Positions 2,923 to 18,848 of a stretch of DNA of 64,000 nucleotides are shown here, in pieces. Under the pieces are notes generated by a model. The model saw only the letters and a program-made list of their open reading frames with translations, was not told the origin of the DNA and did no database searches. The DNA comes from a virus (taxonomy: Duplodnaviria > Heunggongvirae > Uroviricota > Caudoviricetes), in IMG/VR virus record IMGVR_UViG_3300010344_001272, positions 11,046 through 75,045 of that record. One strand, given 5' to 3'. Position 1 is the stretch's first letter. Every line of letters starts with the position of its first letter. Made by a program: the position numbers and the translations under genes.

Positions 2923-2942
2923 ATTACTGTAGTGACTGGAAT

Positions 2943-3019
2943 GGGTTACTTCGTGCTAAATGGTTTAGCAATTGTCTCTTAAACAATGGTTGCGGTTCAA
3001 ATCCGCCTGTTACCCTCCA
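2943..3019 (+). tRNA. tRNA-like, degenerate; anticodon arm reads Lys(CTT)
   Basis: perfect anticodon arm ATTGT-CTCTTAA-ACAAT and D stem TGCT/AGCA, T loop TTCAAAT, CCA end, but acceptor GGGTTAC/GTTACCC has a T-T mismatch and spacing between arms is off by 1-3 nt. Confidence 0.3.
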
Positions 3020-3038: not shown

Positions 3039-3126
3039 GGTCTCAGGAGCTGCTAGGTGTGGCTGCCGGCCTGTCACGCCGGAACGACTAATAATCGACA
3101 GGAGGGTTCGAACCCCTTTGGGACCG
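3039..3126 (+). tRNA. 88-nt type-II-like tRNA with 19-nt variable arm; anticodon loop CTGTCAC reads GTC (Asp)
   Basis: acceptor GGTCTCA/TGGGACC 7/7 with one wobble, D stem AGCT/GGCT, anticodon stem CCGGC/GCCGG, T arm GAGGG-TTCGAAC-CCCTT; long variable arm is unusual for GTC. Confidence 0.45.
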
Positions 3127-3156
3127 CTAACCGTAGTGATAGAACAGAGTTTCATC

Positions 3157-3229: not shown

Positions 3230-3261
3230 AAAAAGGCTCTTTCTGGTTTTCTCGGTTAAAC

Positions 3262-3389: not shown

Positions 3390-4052
3390 ATGAATTGCGA
3401 AAATTGCGGAAATAAACATGATGGAACTTATGGTTCTGGAAGATTTTGTTCATCTAAATGTGCTAGAGGTTTTAGTACAAAAACAAAAAGAAAGGAAATT
3501 AACCAAAAGGTAAGTAAAAAACTAAAGAAGAATTTTCTGGAAATAAAAACTTGCCCATGTGGAAAAACGTTTGAAACTTCAAATAAAAAAAGATATTGTT
3601 CTTCTTCTTGTGGAAGTCATTATTCTCAGTTAGGAAAAAATAAGAAAAAAGGGATAGAAAGAAAACAAGGATCGGGGGGATTAAGACCTGGTGGAGGTAA
3701 ATCAAAACAAATTCCATACACAAATTGGCTAGGTTTTAAAATGTTTCTTAACACAGAAGAAATAGAAGTAGCAAAAATACTTGATGAGAAAAAATTAAAT
3801 TGGGATAGAAACAGAAAAGGCTTTCCTTATTTAATGCGAAATGGAAAACAAAGAAAATATTATCCTGATTTTGTAGTAAATGGAAACAAATACATTGAAT
3901 ACAAAGGGTGGGTTACTGAAGAAATGGAATGGAAAATGAACGATGCAGTTAAAACTAATAATCTAAATTTGAATATTATAGTCGGAACAGACCCTCGATA
4001 CCAGAGATTCGGTATAACCTTAAAAGAATTAAAAAATGGAAAAAGCTTTTAA
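3390..4052 (+). CDS. putative homing-type endonuclease (N-terminal zinc ribbon, C-terminal YYPDF...IEYKGW PD-(D/E)xK-like motif); paralog of 17118-17750
   Basis: CxxC...CxxxC at N-terminus, basic middle, conserved C-terminal block shared with second copy; sits inside tRNA array. Confidence 0.4.
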   Translation: MNCENCGNKHDGTYGSGRFCSSKCARGFSTKTKRKEINQKVSKKLKKNFLEIKTCPCGKTFETSNKKRYCSSSCGSHYSQLGKNKKKGIERKQGSGGLRPGGGKSKQIPYTNWLGFKMFLNTEEIEVAKILDEKKLNWDRNRKGFPYLMRNGKQRKYYPDFVVNGNKYIEYKGWVTEEMEWKMNDAVKTNNLNLNIIVGTDPRYQRFGITLKELKNGKSF

Positions 4053-4289: not shown

Positions 4290-4363
4290 GGGCTGTTAGC
4301 TCAGATGGCTAGAGCGCCTGCCTTGCAAGCAGGAGGCCAAGGGTTCGACTCCCTTACGGTCCA
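4290..4363 (+). tRNA. tRNA-Ala(TGC)
   Basis: acceptor GGGCTGT/ACGGTCC with two wobbles, D arm GCTC-AGATGGCTA-GAGC, anticodon stem CCTGC/GCAGG, loop CTTGCAA. Confidence 0.85.
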
Positions 4364-4424
4364 CTACAGACAGACTGTTAAATTTTCATAGTAACCGTGA
4401 CGACGGGTTTCATAGAAAATTAAC

Positions 4425-4498
4425 GCCTTCGTGGCGCAATTGCGTAGCGCTACTCCCTCTTAAGGAGAAGGTTAAGGGTTCGAGTCCCTTCGGAGGCA
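4425..4498 (+). tRNA. tRNA-Lys(CTT)
   Basis: acceptor GCCTTCG/CGGAGGC, D arm GCGC-AATTGCGTA-GCGC, anticodon loop CTCTTAA, T arm AAGGG-TTCGAGT-CCCTT; A-A mismatch at 27-43. Confidence 0.7.
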
Positions 4499-4506
4499 CA
4501 AATGCC

Positions 4507-4613
4507 GGATGATACACTGTTTTATCACAGTGCCGGCTCCAAGGGCGATACGTGGTGGTTGGTTGCCGGCCCCACCCAGTTGGTTATCATGGGTTCGATC
4601 CCCATATCGTCCA
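4507..4613 (+). tRNA. atypical 107-nt tRNA-like gene
   Basis: perfect acceptor GGATGAT/ATCGTCC, D arm ACTG-TTTTATCA-CAGT, T arm ATGGG-TTCGATC-CCCAT, but the anticodon region is a GCCGGC...GCCGGC stem enclosing 27 nt plus a 19-nt variable region; packed in the tRNA array with 3-8 nt spacers. Confidence 0.3.
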
Positions 4614-4618
4614 CAAAT

Positions 4619-4695
4619 AGTGCGTTAGTTCAGTTGGTTAGAATATCAGACTGTCACTCTGAGGGTCGCGAGTTCGAGTCTCGTACGCACTGCCA
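4619..4695 (+). tRNA. tRNA-Asp(GTC), CCA encoded
   Basis: acceptor AGTGCGT/ACGCACT 7/7, D arm GTTC-AGTTGGTTA-GAAT, anticodon stem TCAGA/TCTGA, loop CTGTCAC. Confidence 0.85.
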
Positions 4696-4702
4696 TAGAA
4701 TC

Positions 4703-4759
4703 TGTAGTAAGAATAGAGTTTCATCGTGGTAAACATTGGTTCGAATCCAATACCGAGCG
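4703..4759 (+). other. conserved tRNA-junction motif followed by an isolated tRNA 3' fragment (T arm ATTGG-TTCGAAT-CCAAT plus acceptor strand ACCGAGC-G)
   Basis: motif TGTAGTAAGAATAGAGTTTCATCGTGG as in three other sites; no D or anticodon arm and no complementary 5' acceptor strand nearby. Confidence 0.3.
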
Positions 4760-4801
4760 CATTGCTTAGTAATTAAACTCTTTTCAACTTTCTCAGATTA
4801 C

Positions 4802-5143: not shown

Positions 5144-5571
5144 AACTTTATCGATACAGTGTTACATCTTCAAGACATGGTGCAATTCCACACGTTGAGT
5201 TACAATCGTATGATGTTAAAAAGGAAACAAATAAAGGATATTGGATTAGTTTGTATTGGGGAAGTGATAAGAAATGGGTTTCAAAAGATGGATTGCGAAG
5301 ATTTGCATTTCCAACAAAGTATCAAGCAATGCAGAATTTTATAAAGCGAACTGAGAAACGTGTAAAATATTTAGAAATAGATTTACAAGCATGCCAAGTT
5401 GGTTTGCAGTCTGCAAAAAGAATACAAGAAGATATTTCTGAAGATGATGATGTTGTAACATTATATCATATTTTAAAACTGCGGGGTAGAGCAGCGGTAG
5501 CTCGTGAGGCCCATAACCTCAAGGTCGAGGGTTCGAACCCCTTCCCCGCTACAAATGGCGAGAAAGTTTAG
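5140..5571 (+). CDS. hypothetical protein; 3' end reads through tRNA-Met
   Basis: 143-aa ORF; last 30 codons coincide with a well-folding tRNA so the true stop may be misplaced or the overlap is real. Confidence 0.35.
   Translation: MKLYRYSVTSSRHGAIPHVELQSYDVKKETNKGYWISLYWGSDKKWVSKDGLRRFAFPTKYQAMQNFIKRTEKRVKYLEIDLQACQVGLQSAKRIQEDISEDDDVVTLYHILKLRGRAAVAREAHNLKVEGSNPFPATNGEKV
5480..5551 (+). tRNA. tRNA-Met(CAT), possibly initiator (1-72 T-T mismatch)
   Basis: D arm GAGC-AGCGGTA-GCTC, anticodon stem TGAGG/CCTCA, loop CCCATAA, T arm GAGGG-TTCGAAC-CCCTT, acceptor TGCGGGG/CCCCGCT with 1-72 mismatch. Confidence 0.7.
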
Positions 5572-5682
5572 AAAAAGGCTCTTATTAGCTTTCTCATTTC
5601 GGTGTAGTAATTATGAGAGTTTCATCGGAAAAACGTCAAGCTCATAACTTGAAGATCGTTGGTTCAAATCCAGCTCTCGCCA
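5557..5682 (+). tRNA. tRNA-like Met/Ile2(CAT) gene with about 60-nt insertion in the D loop that contains the conserved junction motif
   Basis: acceptor GGCGAGA/TCTCGCC 7/7, D stem GTTT/AAAC, anticodon arm TCAAG-CTCATAA-CTTGA 5/5, T arm GTTGG-TTCAAAT-CCAGC; the canonical parts are interrupted only inside the D loop. Confidence 0.4.
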
Positions 5683-5729: not shown

Positions 5730-6284
5730 ATGCCAAGGAAACCAAAAGTGTATCATGTTCTTTACAAAACAACTTGTTTAGTGACAAATCGATATTATAT
5801 TGGAATGCACTCAACAAATGATTTAAATGATGGATATTTAGGAAGTGGAACAAGATTAAGATATTCTATTAAGAAATACGGAATTGAAAATCATAAGTTT
5901 GAAATTTTAGAAAACCTTCCCGATAGAAGTTCTTTGAAATTAAGAGAAAAGGAAGTTGTTAATGAAGAATTAATTAAGGATGTTAATTGTATGAATTTAA
6001 AATGCGGGGGTGAAGGAGGAGGAAAATTTTGGAATAAAGAACACCAGAAAAAATGTTCTATTGCAGGAGCCCTTGCTGTGTTACCTATTAGAAGACAATA
6101 TCATCTTGATAAATTAAAAACAGATCCAGAATATAGAAAAAAATACAAACAATCACTAAGTAAAGCACTATCAGGTGAAAAAAATCCTTTTTATGGAAAA
6201 CATCATACAGAAGAAACAAAACAAAAAATGAGAAAACCTCATAAAACATATAAAAAACGAAAAGCAAAAATCATGACCTCGTAA
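5730..6284 (+). CDS. GIY-YIG homing endonuclease
   Basis: N-terminal KVYHVLYKTTCLVTNRYYIGMHST...GYLGSG GIY-YIG module; paralog at 18204. Confidence 0.75.
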   Translation: MPRKPKVYHVLYKTTCLVTNRYYIGMHSTNDLNDGYLGSGTRLRYSIKKYGIENHKFEILENLPDRSSLKLREKEVVNEELIKDVNCMNLKCGGEGGGKFWNKEHQKKCSIAGALAVLPIRRQYHLDKLKTDPEYRKKYKQSLSKALSGEKNPFYGKHHTEETKQKMRKPHKTYKKRKAKIMTS

Positions 6285-9142: not shown

Positions 9143-9384
9143 CAGCGCAAGAATACATAGATGCTTGGGATATAAGATGGGAAAATCATTTTAGATACTC
9201 TGTTTTAGTTGAAGAATTAAGTAATTTACAAGGAATTGATGTAGTTGCCCAGATGGAATCTGTTTTAATAGCCGAAATGACTAAGGAGGTTGACAAACAT
9301 ATACAAAACGATATACAGAGATTATTTAATATGAGTATACAACAATCAGAAAAAATTAACACAATAGTCGATGGAATCCTATAA
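9121..9384 (+). CDS. hypothetical protein
   Basis: 87-aa ORF. Confidence 0.3.
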   Translation: MLRRMCMTAQEYIDAWDIRWENHFRYSVLVEELSNLQGIDVVAQMESVLIAEMTKEVDKHIQNDIQRLFNMSIQQSEKINTIVDGIL

Positions 9385-10003
9385 TTCCATACCAAAATGG
9401 AGTGAAGATTATTTTGGCAAATATGTATTCGCATTTGACAAAATAGACGGTTCCAATTTCAGAGCTGAATGGAATCGAAAATTATCTAAAAAATCCCGCT
9501 TTACATATGGTTTTGGAAAATTTGGAACCAGACAAGACAGAATAAAATTTATTAAAGATCCATATTGTGAAGGTATTGAAATATTTAAAAACAAATTTTC
9601 GGAAAAATTAGATAAGATATTCTTAGAAAACAAAACGTTTAGAAACATTGATAATATCACAGTATTTGGAGAATTTTATGGATCTAAAAGCTTTGCTGGA
9701 ATGCATGATTGGAGTGAAAAACATGATGTCAAAATTTTTGATGTATTTTTAGATAGAAAAGGAATTTTGCCCCCATCTGATTTTATAAAAATATTTGAAG
9801 GATTAGATACATGCAAACTTATATTTGCGGGAATTTTTTCTCAAAGTTATTTAGAGTTAATTGAAAAAAATATATTAAATTTACAAGAAGGAGTTGTTTG
9901 TAAAGGGGTTGAAAACCAAGAGGTATTCATGTTCAAAATAAAAACACTGAAATGGCTTCAGAAGGTAAGAGATTTATATGGTAATGAAAGAACTGATTAT
10001 TAG
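9371..10003 (+). CDS. ATP-dependent RNA ligase, Rnl2-like nucleotidyltransferase domain only
   Basis: motif I KIDGSNFRAEW, motif III FGEFYG, motif IV EGVVCKG, motif V FKIK. Confidence 0.6.
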   Translation: MESYNSIPKWSEDYFGKYVFAFDKIDGSNFRAEWNRKLSKKSRFTYGFGKFGTRQDRIKFIKDPYCEGIEIFKNKFSEKLDKIFLENKTFRNIDNITVFGEFYGSKSFAGMHDWSEKHDVKIFDVFLDRKGILPPSDFIKIFEGLDTCKLIFAGIFSQSYLELIEKNILNLQEGVVCKGVENQEVFMFKIKTLKWLQKVRDLYGNERTDY

Positions 10004-10848: not shown

Positions 10849-11082
10849 GTGGTAGTCAAAAAAGAAAAATTATCAACTGTGTTTCTAATGTTAGGAACTT
10901 TCTTCAATCCATTAGGATACGATGCGCTATTGAAGGCTTTACTGGATTGGACAGGCAATTATTGGCTTTCAATTTCCATTTTTTACCTTGTCTCAGCTTG
11001 TTTCTTTACGCTATATTTTGTATTTTCTAAAACAAATCCATTGAATTTGTTTCGAAAAAATAAAAAAAATGCCCATTCATAA
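10849..11082 (+). CDS. small membrane protein
   Basis: 77 aa, hydrophobic. Confidence 0.25.
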   Translation: MVVKKEKLSTVFLMLGTFFNPLGYDALLKALLDWTGNYWLSISIFYLVSACFFTLYFVFSKTNPLNLFRKNKKNAHS

Positions 11083-17117: not shown

Positions 17118-17750
17118 ATGGCAAGAAAATCAAGAAAATTTATTTGTGAAAAATGTGGAAATGAATTTGAATCAAAAAGAAAAGATGTTAGATTTTGTTC
17201 TAATAGTTGCAGGGCTTCAATTATAAATATGGGTAGAAAACCATTTAATTTTGTTGAAGGAAAAATTAGATATTGTTTAACATGCGGAAAAAAACTTCAT
17301 CATCAAACTAAAACAGGATATTGTGTTGACCATTATGTAACAGATGATTTTAAAGACAAAATTAGCAAAGGCGTTAAAAAAATAGGTGGGGGCGGATATC
17401 GAAAAAACTCAGGAAGAGGTAAACATGGGTGGTATAAAGGATTTTGGTGTGACAGTAGTTGGGAATTAGCTTGGGTTATTTATAATTTAGATCACGGAAT
17501 AAAATTTGAACGTAATACTAAAGGATTTGAATATATTTTTGAGGAAAAAATTTATAAATATTATCCAGATTTTAAAATATTAAAAGACAATTTGTACATA
17601 GAAATAAAAGGATGGATAGATGAAAAAAACAAAGCAAAAATTTCTCAATTTAAAGGTTTTTTAAAGGTATTATTTAGAAATGACATGAAATATATTTTTG
17701 AATACGTTGAAAATAAATACGGAAAACAATTTATAAAAATGTATGAATAA
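17118..17750 (+). CDS. putative homing-type endonuclease, paralog of 3390-4052
   Basis: N-terminal CEKCGNEFESKRKDVRFCSNSC zinc ribbon and C-terminal YYPDFKILKDNLYIEIKGW block. Confidence 0.4.
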   Translation: MARKSRKFICEKCGNEFESKRKDVRFCSNSCRASIINMGRKPFNFVEGKIRYCLTCGKKLHHQTKTGYCVDHYVTDDFKDKISKGVKKIGGGGYRKNSGRGKHGWYKGFWCDSSWELAWVIYNLDHGIKFERNTKGFEYIFEEKIYKYYPDFKILKDNLYIEIKGWIDEKNKAKISQFKGFLKVLFRNDMKYIFEYVENKYGKQFIKMYE

Positions 17751-18203: not shown

Positions 18204-18848
18204 ATGTCTAGAAGTAAAATAAAATTTCATTATATTTATAAAACAACCTGTTCTATAACAAATAGATATTATTATGGAATGCATTCTACTTATAATATTG
18301 ATGACGAATATTTAGGTTCAGGAAAAAGATTAAGATATTCCATAAGAAAATATGGAAAAGAAAATCATAAAAAAGAAATAATTGAATTTTGTAAAGATAA
18401 ATTAGAATTAAAGGAGAAAGAATTTAAAATAATAAATGAAGAATTATTGAATGATCCATTATGTATGAATTTACAGCCTGGTGGTGGAGGGGGATGGAGT
18501 AGTGAAATGCAAAGTCAAAATGGTATTAGAGGCAATGTCAGAATGAAATGGTTAAGGGAAAATGATGAAGATTGGAAAAATAAATTATCGATTAAACACT
18601 CTAATTATATGATAAATTCTTATAAAAATGGAACCAGAATTCCAAATCCCCCAAATTGGACAGGAAGAAAACATAAAGAAGAAACTAAACAAAAAATAGG
18701 TTTTTCAAATTCAATAAAACAACTTGGACAAAAAAATTCACAATATGGAACTCATTGGATAACAAACGGAGTTCAAAATAAAAAAATTAATAAAAATTGT
18801 GATATTCCTGATGAATGGTACTTAGGTAGAATTGTTAAAAAATGTTAA
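18204..18848 (+). CDS. GIY-YIG homing endonuclease (paralog of 5730)
   Basis: KIKFHYIYKTTCSITNRYYYGMHST...EYLGSGKRLRYSIRKYG. Confidence 0.75.
   Translation: MSRSKIKFHYIYKTTCSITNRYYYGMHSTYNIDDEYLGSGKRLRYSIRKYGKENHKKEIIEFCKDKLELKEKEFKIINEELLNDPLCMNLQPGGGGGWSSEMQSQNGIRGNVRMKWLRENDEDWKNKLSIKHSNYMINSYKNGTRIPNPPNWTGRKHKEETKQKIGFSNSIKQLGQKNSQYGTHWITNGVQNKKINKNCDIPDEWYLGRIVKKC

Follow-up and report, generated by a model that had tools for sequence, protein, structure and literature searches.

Evidence for two adjacent small structured RNAs at a tRNA-like locus in the tRNA array of a T4-like phage

What kind of RNA is encoded between tRNA-Lys(CUU) and tRNA-Asp(GUC) in the transfer RNA (tRNA) array of the phage represented by IMG/VR record IMGVR_UViG_3300010344_001272 (Caudoviricetes)? 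We analysed 64,000 nucleotides of this record (positions 11,046 to 75,045), which are referred to as the window and in which all coordinates are given. An earlier note had placed a single 107-nt tRNA-like gene at positions 4507-4613, with canonical acceptor, D and T arms and a 27-nt loop in the anticodon region, and had considered an intron-containing tRNA, a tRNA-derived regulatory RNA or a decoy. We consider it probable (about 80%) that the interval instead consists of two adjacent, independently conserved small structured RNAs within the tRNA operon of a T4-like phage, namely a bulged hairpin ending in UCCA (module A) and an anticodon-less tRNA-like RNA (module B). Our confidence in any specific function of either module is low.

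Tracts of this kind deserve attention because phage tRNA arrays are now viewed as counter-defence loci against tRNA-cleaving immunity, and the non-tRNA RNAs inside them have been unexplained since rnaC and rnaD of phage T4. Modules A and B look like new RNA families of a type already known. What is new is a pair of compact, covariation-supported modules absent from Rfam and from the GenBank phage records searched, one of them an anticodon-less tRNA mimic kept more strictly than the adjoining tRNAs, the other a CCA-tailed hairpin found again in distant phages. Their size makes both amenable to direct biochemistry. They also illustrate an annotation pitfall, in that two adjacent modules can imitate one intron-containing tRNA.

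Dissection of the 107-nt interval

The suspicion that a non-canonical, tRNA-like element occupies this slot was well founded, and the pairings on which it rested can all be drawn. GGATGAT at 4507-4513 can pair with ATCGTCC at 4606-4612, with one G-U among the pairs; ACTG (4516-4519) is pairable with CAGT (4528-4531); ATGGG and CCCAT form a T arm around the loop TTCGATC; and the two GCCGGC copies at 4532-4537 and 4565-4570 flank 27 nt. The position in the array was correctly given as 5 nt before tRNA-Asp, while the distance from tRNA-Lys is 7 nt and not 8. As a unit, however, the interval does not behave like a tRNA gene. The Infernal/Rfam tRNA and tmRNA (transfer-messenger RNA) models, proposed in the earlier note as a check, do not call it: 4507-4613 is reported neither by ARAGORN at default settings nor by Rfam at the gathering threshold, the Rfam tRNA model RF00005 has no match to 4507-4613 or 4543-4613 at the gathering threshold or at E ≤10, and ARAGORN with introns allowed (-i) finds nothing at the element. 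When the ARAGORN threshold is lowered to 80%, the call is 4543-4614, not 4507-4613. In E-value mode, the sole Rfam clan match is tRNA-Sec (RF01852), which covers 4543-4612 only and with 14.5 bits (E = 5) falls short of its 47-bit gathering threshold. A match to YrlA, a bacterial Y RNA (RF02553), reaches 19.5 bits where 69 are needed and spans 4566-4672, thus straddling module B and tRNA-Asp. The folding energy of the element is unremarkable (z = -1.35 to -1.7).

Comparison with related contigs (designated by L numbers), which were recruited by pattern scans and by a scan with the neighbouring RNA ligase, separates the interval into two parts. The full 107 nt are present in L001/L002, which are about 85-92% identical to the window overall and carry one change in the element, A4527 to G, converting a U-A to a U·G pair. 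In L003/L004/L020, only the 3' 67 nt, starting with GGGCGAT, lie between tRNA-Lys(CUU) and tRNA-Asp, and L007/L008/L016/L027 carry a 71-nt version in the same tRNA-Lys/tRNA-Asp slot. A 70-nt version occurs in a different neighbourhood in a distant 214-kb phage (L026/L038) and in a separate 20-kb contig (L039). Since the 5' 36-40 nt are missing from all of these relatives, the conserved unit is 4543-4613, i.e., module B. Its own 5' acceptor strand, GGGCGAT at 4543-4549, lies within the supposed 27-nt loop and is complementary to the same ATCGTCC. Altogether, module B occurs without A in three lineages and module A without B in at least five other contexts.

Module B is represented by four sequence variants in about 10 contigs, always within tRNA arrays. 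Its acceptor and T stems are fully paired in all four variants, and 97.6% of cells are paired overall compared with at most 51% in slid controls. In L026/L038, the acceptor pairs 5-68, 6-67 and 7-66 along with two T-stem pairs are changed on both sides. The pairs G1-C72, G2-C71, G3·U70 and C4-G69 are constant in all four variants, and they are identical to the first four acceptor pairs of the tRNA-Ala of the window. The 7-bp acceptor stem, the 5-bp T stem and a T loop conforming to UUCRANY are those of a tRNA, but the anticodon arm (5-bp stem, 7-nt loop, U33, R37) is absent, the stem drawn for it in the earlier note enclosing 27 nt. One short GC helix with a variable tip replaces the D stem and the anticodon arm, so module B cannot decode. 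This central helix, GGUGG/CCAYC, is the only middle helix that is intact in all four variants; the 4 nt deleted in L003 and the bases substituted in L026 belong to its apical part. A 10-bp central hairpin, GUGGuGGUUGG/CCGGCCCCAC, taken from the minimum free energy fold, was discarded, as two of its pairs break in L026 whereas the 5-bp helix fits all variants. The D-loop-like segment reads GUUGGUU, and CCA is not encoded. The suggestion of a non-decoding, tRNA-like RNA is thus supported for 4543-4613 alone, with its covarying acceptor stem and T arm and the lack of an anticodon arm.

Conservation of module B exceeds that of its neighbours: between the window and L007 it is 97% identical, compared with 82% for tRNA-Lys and 70.5% for tRNA-Asp. 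A covariance model of B (R1) scores 90-102 bits and finds one copy per phage; its best non-self match in the window is tRNA-Ala with 26.5 bits. Three further pattern designs run against IMG/VR and one against a metagenome collection returned only the same four variants. A B-specific junction pattern applied to 185,579 species-representative genomes, which addressed a host origin, gave chance matches in coding DNA only.

Copies of module A were found by a hairpin scan and then by a looser pattern. The resulting alignment comprises nine variants from window/L001, L048/50/53, L051, L064, L111, L125, L134 and L139. Pairing of the inner helix P2 helped to select the candidates among the pattern hits; pairing of the outer helix P1 did not. 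All 99 of 99 pair cells are standard, and six of the eleven pairs (5 + 6 bp) are changed on both sides. The covariation score of 0.621 compares with 0.147 in shuffled alignments and was reached by none of 500 shuffles; slid controls are at most 43% paired. P1 occurs as GCCGG/CCGGC, GUGGG/CCCAC, GCGGG/CCCGC and CGGGG/CCCCG, and P2 in four inner forms, in which the inner three pairs vary in step. The consensus can be written as WUAU-[NNNGG]-RNGAUA-[CACNNN]-UUYAUC-[NNNGUG]-[CCNNN]-UCCA. A covariance model of A (R2) scores 64-70 bits per copy and finds one copy per locus; no second copy was detected with it in the window. The other loci that bear A are tRNA arrays of mostly distant phage contigs. 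None of them carries B, and the contigs share little with the window phage besides homing endonucleases, one small open reading frame and a weak capsid match. Both here and in L048/50/53, the +1 base of the following tRNA or tRNA-like gene comes 1 nt after the UCCA of module A, and at several loci the unit upstream of A ends in CCA and is followed by the WUAU leader. A pseudoknot between GAUA of the bulge and UAUC of the loop was also considered. The two are complementary, but the connecting loops would have zero length, and the intramolecular form was rejected as sterically implausible. BLAST of the region and of module A against GenBank phages gave no homologue of A or B, and neither module matched an Rfam family (gathering threshold over the window; E ≤10 over 4350-4800). 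Large surveys record tRNA-like candidate RNAs in IMG/VR without describing A or B (PMC10690425).

The contigs that bear A also contain strings of short non-canonical RNAs (L134 2500-2900, L139 150-350, L064 3520-3680, L111 4235-4360 and L125 3030-3160). A 3'-terminal CCA is encoded in each of these RNAs, as ACCA or GCCA, and a U-rich spacer comes next. Example units have the form GCAAGG...CCUUGC-RACCA with the motif UUUCAUGAG and a T-arm-like hairpin. Almost all of the RNAs in these strings are missed by ARAGORN.

With both modules delimited, the cloverleaf of the earlier note can be traced to its sources. Its acceptor 5' strand, GGAUGAU at 4507-4513, consists of the last two bases of P1 and five bases of the conserved bulge of A, its D arm is P2, and its first GCCGGC is the 3' strand of P1. 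The 5' half was therefore contributed by module A and the 3' half by module B. GGRNGAUA is kept in copies of A without a following B, and the 3' acceptor strand AUCGUCC of B is identical in all close relatives without A (the distant L026 copy differs at stem bases 5-7). The complementarity of 4507-4513 and 4606-4612 is thus not a product of co-evolution. By simple arithmetic, the chance of finding a 7-nt complement of ATCGTCC, G-U pairs allowed, in a neighbour of about 40 nt is around 2%. Folding calculations agree with this partition. Once the three bases upstream of 4507 are part of the folded sequence, the unconstrained minimum free energy structure of 4500-4616 is the two-module fold with -43.0 kcal/mol, which is 4.3-5.5 kcal/mol better than the best fold containing the acceptor of the earlier note (-38.7 kcal/mol) and its complete cloverleaf (-37.5 kcal/mol). 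An open reading frame at 4502-4732 was dismissed as coding, as it overlaps a true tRNA and its start is missing in relatives.

Table 1. Positions of the two modules, their structural parts and neighbouring genes in the window
Feature	Coordinates	Strand	Sequence or description	Basis
Module A	4504-4541	+	38-nt bulged hairpin ending in UCCA	Covariation, covariance model R2, minimum free energy fold
Segment preceding A	4500-4503		AAAU	
A, helix P1	4504-4508/4533-4537		GCCGG/CCGGC	
A, 5' bulge	4509-4514		AUGAUA, conserved	
A, helix P2	4515-4520/4527-4532		CACUGU/ACAGUG	
A, loop	4521-4526		UUUAUC	
A, 3' tail	4538-4541		UCCA	
Module B	4543-4613	+	71-nt anticodon-less tRNA-like RNA	Covariation, covariance model R1, conservation
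B, acceptor stem	4543-4549/4606-4612		GGGCGAU/AUCGUCC, 7 bp; G3·U70 = 4545·4608; discriminator A4613	
B, 4-nt linker	4550-4553		ACGU, invariant	
B, central helix	4554-4558/4572-4576		GGUGG/CCACC; variable apical part 4559-4571	
B, 3' linker	4577-4588		CAGUUGGUUAUC, invariant; contains D-loop-like AGUUGGUUA	
B, T arm	4589-4593/4601-4605		T loop UUCGAUC, 4594-4600	
tRNA-Ala	4290-4364		Upstream of tRNA-Lys in the array	
tRNA-Lys(CUU)	4425-4499	+	Upstream neighbour	ARAGORN and Rfam, 60.5 bits
tRNA-Asp(GUC)	4619-4695	+	Downstream neighbour	ARAGORN and Rfam, 67 bits
Homing-endonuclease-like genes	3390-4052, 5730-6284, 17118-17750, 18204-18848		HNH/endonuclease, NUMOD3-containing PHROG 314; among tRNA genes	
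RNA ligase gene	9371-10003		PF09414, PHROG 548; within the tRNA region, 4.8 kb from the 107-nt element	

Alternative explanations

In principle, the interval could still be one 107-nt tRNA-like gene with a 20-27-nt insertion (mini-intron) in the anticodon region, which is spliced or used as is, possibly involving the RNA ligase of the phage. All four stems are drawable, a fold with the long-range acceptor reaches -38.7 kcal/mol, an RNA ligase gene lies 4.8 kb away, and the tRNA-like sequence at 5557-5680 of the same array has a long insertion behind its acceptor 5' strand and one covarying acceptor pair. We nevertheless regard a single gene as highly improbable. Models that allow introns are as silent as the others, three lineages keep only the 3' 67-71 nt with an acceptor stem that covaries on its own, the presumed first exon is a separate hairpin module with its own closing helix that is found without B, and the energetically preferred structure is modular. 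In addition, whichever way the loop is read, a correctly framed 7-nt anticodon loop with U33-NNN-R37 does not result. The 27-nt loop was also read as a split anticodon loop (CCA or CAA), an idea dropped when ARAGORN with introns found nothing. It is very unlikely that the 5' 36-40 nt arose by partial tandem duplication of the 5' part of B and then diverged, with the copied GCCGGC and acceptor strand creating the cloverleaf. Collinear matches between GGATGATAC and GGGCGATAC (7/9 positions) and between TGCCGGCTCCA and TGCCGGCCCCA (10/11 positions) are in line with such an event (shuffle p 0.008 for local and 0.02 for global comparison), and homing endonucleases in tRNA arrays promote segmental duplication (PMC13096335). 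However, the middle 15 nt have no similarity to B, and a unit of about 40 nt with the same bulge, loop, UCCA tail and compensated helices exists in mostly distant phages without B. Duplication as the main explanation was dropped once the 5' unit had been found independently in other phages.

Three further alternatives concern module B itself. It could be a tRNA pseudogene in decay, such as a one-time tRNA-Ala whose anticodon arm has been lost, retained without any function of its own, either through gene conversion or for its spacing alone. It is accepted by none of the tRNA models, other tRNA fragments reside in the array (4704-4760), and tRNA gene fragments are common in prokaryotes (PMC9897764). 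We consider decay unlikely in view of the better conservation of B compared with the functional tRNAs on either side (97% vs 70-82%), the persistence of its stems through five double substitutions in a phage with unrelated surrounding sequence, and the invariance of its unpaired segments of 12 and 14 nt in all lineages. Quite improbable, too, is a tmRNA-like RNA reduced to the tRNA-like domain (TLD), charged with alanine and/or binding SmpB and thereby interfering with host trans-translation, as proposed for mycobacteriophage DS6A. Like the TLD of tmRNA and the phage-encoded TLD-only gene of DS6A, module B combines an acceptor bearing G3·U70 with a canonical T arm, and in all four variants G3·U70 coincides with the absence of an anticodon arm. 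Such a gene in a phage has precedent, TLD-only RNAs can inhibit trans-translation, and molecules of this type can act as competitors (PMC4131195). Yet the ARAGORN tmRNA search (-m) returned 0 genes even at a threshold of 70%, Rfam gave no tmRNA match at E ≤10, neither an mRNA-like domain nor a partner for the tmRNA helix P2 is present, and a GAC or SmpB-contact motif was not recognised in B. The linker topology is also reversed: B has its long single-stranded linker 3' of the central helix, but the D-loop analogue of a tmRNA TLD is located on the 5' side. The least probable of all explanations is a decoding tRNA of the frameshift type with a weak D arm, an 8-nt anticodon loop and the four-base anticodon CACC or CAUC. 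ARAGORN at the 80% threshold does draw a 5-bp stem CCGGC/GUUGG with the loop CCCACCCA and a 5-nt variable loop UUAUC. This structure stays below the default threshold, has no match to the Rfam tRNA model and has a D region that is 4 nt shorter in L003; we reject it because the anticodon stem loses two of its five pairs in L026 and the loop lacks U33.

Several observations nonetheless weigh against the partition into two independent modules or against the roles discussed below. With 4507-4513 paired to 4606-4612, the fold is only about 4 kcal/mol less stable than the modular one, so that a minor 107-nt conformer could exist. GAUAC and UGCCGGCYCCA occur both in A and in the 5' part of B (shuffle p about 0.01-0.02), and on this basis some common ancestry of, or interaction between, A and B may exist. 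All five double changes in B stem from one lineage, the L026 type, so that its covariation amounts to a single deep comparison. The same lineage has U instead of A as the discriminator of B, which weakens the reading as an alanine-identity element. Furthermore, the processing steps outlined below are all inferred, as is the stability of the products, and it is uncertain whether A is an RNase P substrate, given that its 5 + 6 bp are interrupted by a 6-nt bulge.

Possible origin, processing and role of modules A and B

The closest counterparts are rnaC (species 1) and rnaD (species 2) of T4, stable RNAs from its tRNA cluster to which no role has been assigned (PMC3014915). Like A and B, they are small RNAs inside a T4-type tRNA cluster that abut tRNA genes and have a homing endonuclease gene nearby (segB in T4). 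The partial tRNA features are comparable as well: rnaC has a T-arm hairpin, CCGGG-UUCGAAU-CCCGG, near its 3' end, and rnaD ends in CACCA. In contrast, the T4 RNAs measure 139 and 119 nt, compared with 38 and 71 nt for A and B, the architectures differ, and similarity in sequence or structure was not detected. When the T4 tRNA region was searched with both models, R1 recovered only the T-arm hairpin of rnaC (12.5 bits), and R2 recovered nothing. Judged by position and strand, modules A and B are consistent with stable non-tRNA products cut from a tRNA operon transcript, as in the case of rnaC and rnaD.

Module B resembles the tRNA-Ala of the same phage in G1-C72, G2-C71, G3·U70 and C4-G69 and, in most lineages, also in A73; it differs in the missing anticodon arm and in the U discriminator of the L026 lineage. 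Minihelices with G3·U70 are charged by alanyl-tRNA synthetase (AlaRS; PMC11392972); module A, unlike an alanine minihelix, has no conserved G·U pair. Non-canonical tRNA-shaped genes in metagenomic and phage clusters are also known as irregular tRNAs or allo-tRNAs and as tRNA-like polycistrons (PMC5389517), and some irregular tRNAs may be regulatory instead of decoding (Mukai et al. 2017; PMC5389517). They keep an anticodon arm and combine acceptor and T stems of 8/4 or 9/3 bp, whereas B has the canonical 7/5 combination without an anticodon arm.

How could two such RNAs be made and what could they do? The run of tRNA genes on the same strand, with spacers of 1-7 nt, suggests that A and B would be part of a tRNA precursor, from which the tRNA-processing enzymes of the host would excise them. 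Cleavage by RNase P 5' of G4543 would release B and leave A with the end ...UCCA(A), and RNase P or another endonuclease would cut after the AAAU leader of A. A WUAU leader with U at position -1 fits an RNase P site. Module B would gain its CCA post-transcriptionally and would plausibly be recognised by AlaRS via G3·U70. The products would be stable, non-decoding mimics of the tRNA acceptor end, and their targets would be proteins, of host or phage origin, that recognise tRNA by its "top half" or its CCA end. This proposal is built on the retention in B of the tRNA features recognised by AlaRS, EF-Tu, RNase P and the CCA-adding enzyme (PMC9976931, PMC11392972), combined with its inability to decode, and on the resemblance of A to a CCA-tailed minihelix. 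By analogy with rnaC and rnaD, stable non-decoding mimics of tRNA ends are our best guess for A and B. Recombination within this array, with its many homing endonuclease genes, probably brought module A into the slot before B.

A more far-reaching version is possible but doubtful. According to it, A, as an array-hopping CCA-tailed minihelix, and B, as a G3·U70 mimic chargeable by AlaRS, are new phage RNA families that serve as decoys or competitors. Their targets would be, with equally tentative standing, host factors that recognise the acceptor end or the elbow of tRNA, namely defence nucleases and toxins directed at the acceptor or T loop, AlaRS/EF-Tu and ribosome-rescue factors. If true, decoy RNAs would add an RNA-mimic layer to the counter-defence role of phage tRNA arrays. 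An antisense function as small RNAs was addressed by seeking complements of the invariant linkers in the window, and none beyond chance were found.

The phage, its tRNA array and further unusual RNAs

The window is an AT-rich phage segment (about 32% GC), in which ARAGORN finds 22 tRNAs on the plus strand between 2.8 and 18 kb. It encodes a Gp23-type capsid protein and a prohead protease, which identify the phage as T4-like; a gene for a protein with SprB repeats suggests that the host probably belongs to the Bacteroidota. The homing-endonuclease-like genes interspersed among the tRNA genes fit a shuffling of the array driven by endonucleases, and SegB-type endonucleases are known to drive segmental rearrangement in the tRNA regions of T-even phages (PMC13096335). 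Homologues of these genes, 40-50% identical, reside in the tRNA arrays of L038 and L125. The RNA ligase gene is 90-98% identical across related contigs and suggests a capacity for tRNA repair directed against host anticodon nucleases.

The window and L001 share about 99.5% identity over a block of about 390 bp (4365-4755) that comprises tRNA-Lys, A, B, tRNA-Asp and a T-arm fragment. Identity drops to 88% in tRNA-Ala and to 69% in tRNA-Asn, the two genes flanking the block. This difference suggests that the block may recently have been exchanged between the two phages. Within it, the spacer between tRNA-Ala and tRNA-Lys (4365-4424) is 98-100% identical in L001 and L003, compared with only 88-89% for tRNA-Ala. 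The spacer contains a small hairpin, CCGU-GACG-ACGG, and two TTTCATAG repeats, and it may represent a further conserved small RNA or signal.

A motif of about 25 nt, GTAGTRA-N5-8-RGRGTTWCWTCG, is located directly 5' of tRNA or tRNA-like sequences at 2930-2954, 3133-3156, 4704-4727 and 5604-5627 and also in L003, L016 and L038. It is kept in the distant 214-kb phage, where one copy precedes module B by about 100 nt. The motif can pair with a partner, AAAAAGGCTCTT..GCTTTCTC (3230-3253 and 5572-5595). It may act as a leader, serve in processing or belong to larger RNAs. At 4696-4760, this leader is followed by a lone T-arm hairpin, ATTGG-TTCGAAT-CCAAT, without an acceptor partner, which could be either a tRNA fragment or a minimal T-arm RNA; the first 56 nt of the unit (4696-4751) are 100% identical in L001 and L003.

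Three other genes of the array also depart from the canonical tRNA form. The tRNA-like gene at 5557-5680 (about 124 nt) has the acceptor GGCGAGA 5557-5563/UCUCGCC 5673-5679, a T arm and an anticodon arm with CAU; about 55 nt, including a helix GGCUCUUAU/AUGAGAGUU, are located between the acceptor 5' strand and the anticodon arm. In L007, the acceptor is GGGGAGA/UCUCCCC, a compensatory change, and the anticodon arm has GAU; covariation of the T stem is seen in L001. ARAGORN calls none of the gene, and the Rfam tRNA call (40.9 bits) is confined to 5615-5679. The gene may be of the tRNA-Ile type with a large insertion in the D region. An odd tRNA-like gene at 2926-3012 encodes its UCCA end. Its possible acceptor, GGGUUAC/GUUACCC, contains a U·U mismatch; the D-type hairpin GCUAAA-UGG-UUUAGC has 6 bp and the T stem 4 bp, and the anticodon loop is CUCUUAA (CUU). 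The Rfam tRNA match is only partial (2955-3006, 34.8 bits), and similar genes are present in L016 and L038. Finally, the tRNA-Asp(GUC) at 3039-3127 is 89 nt long owing to an 11-nt insertion, CGACUAAUAAU, with a small extra hairpin in the variable region, and its only Rfam score is tRNA-Sec-like (27.2 bits); its copies in L001 and L003 measure 78 nt.

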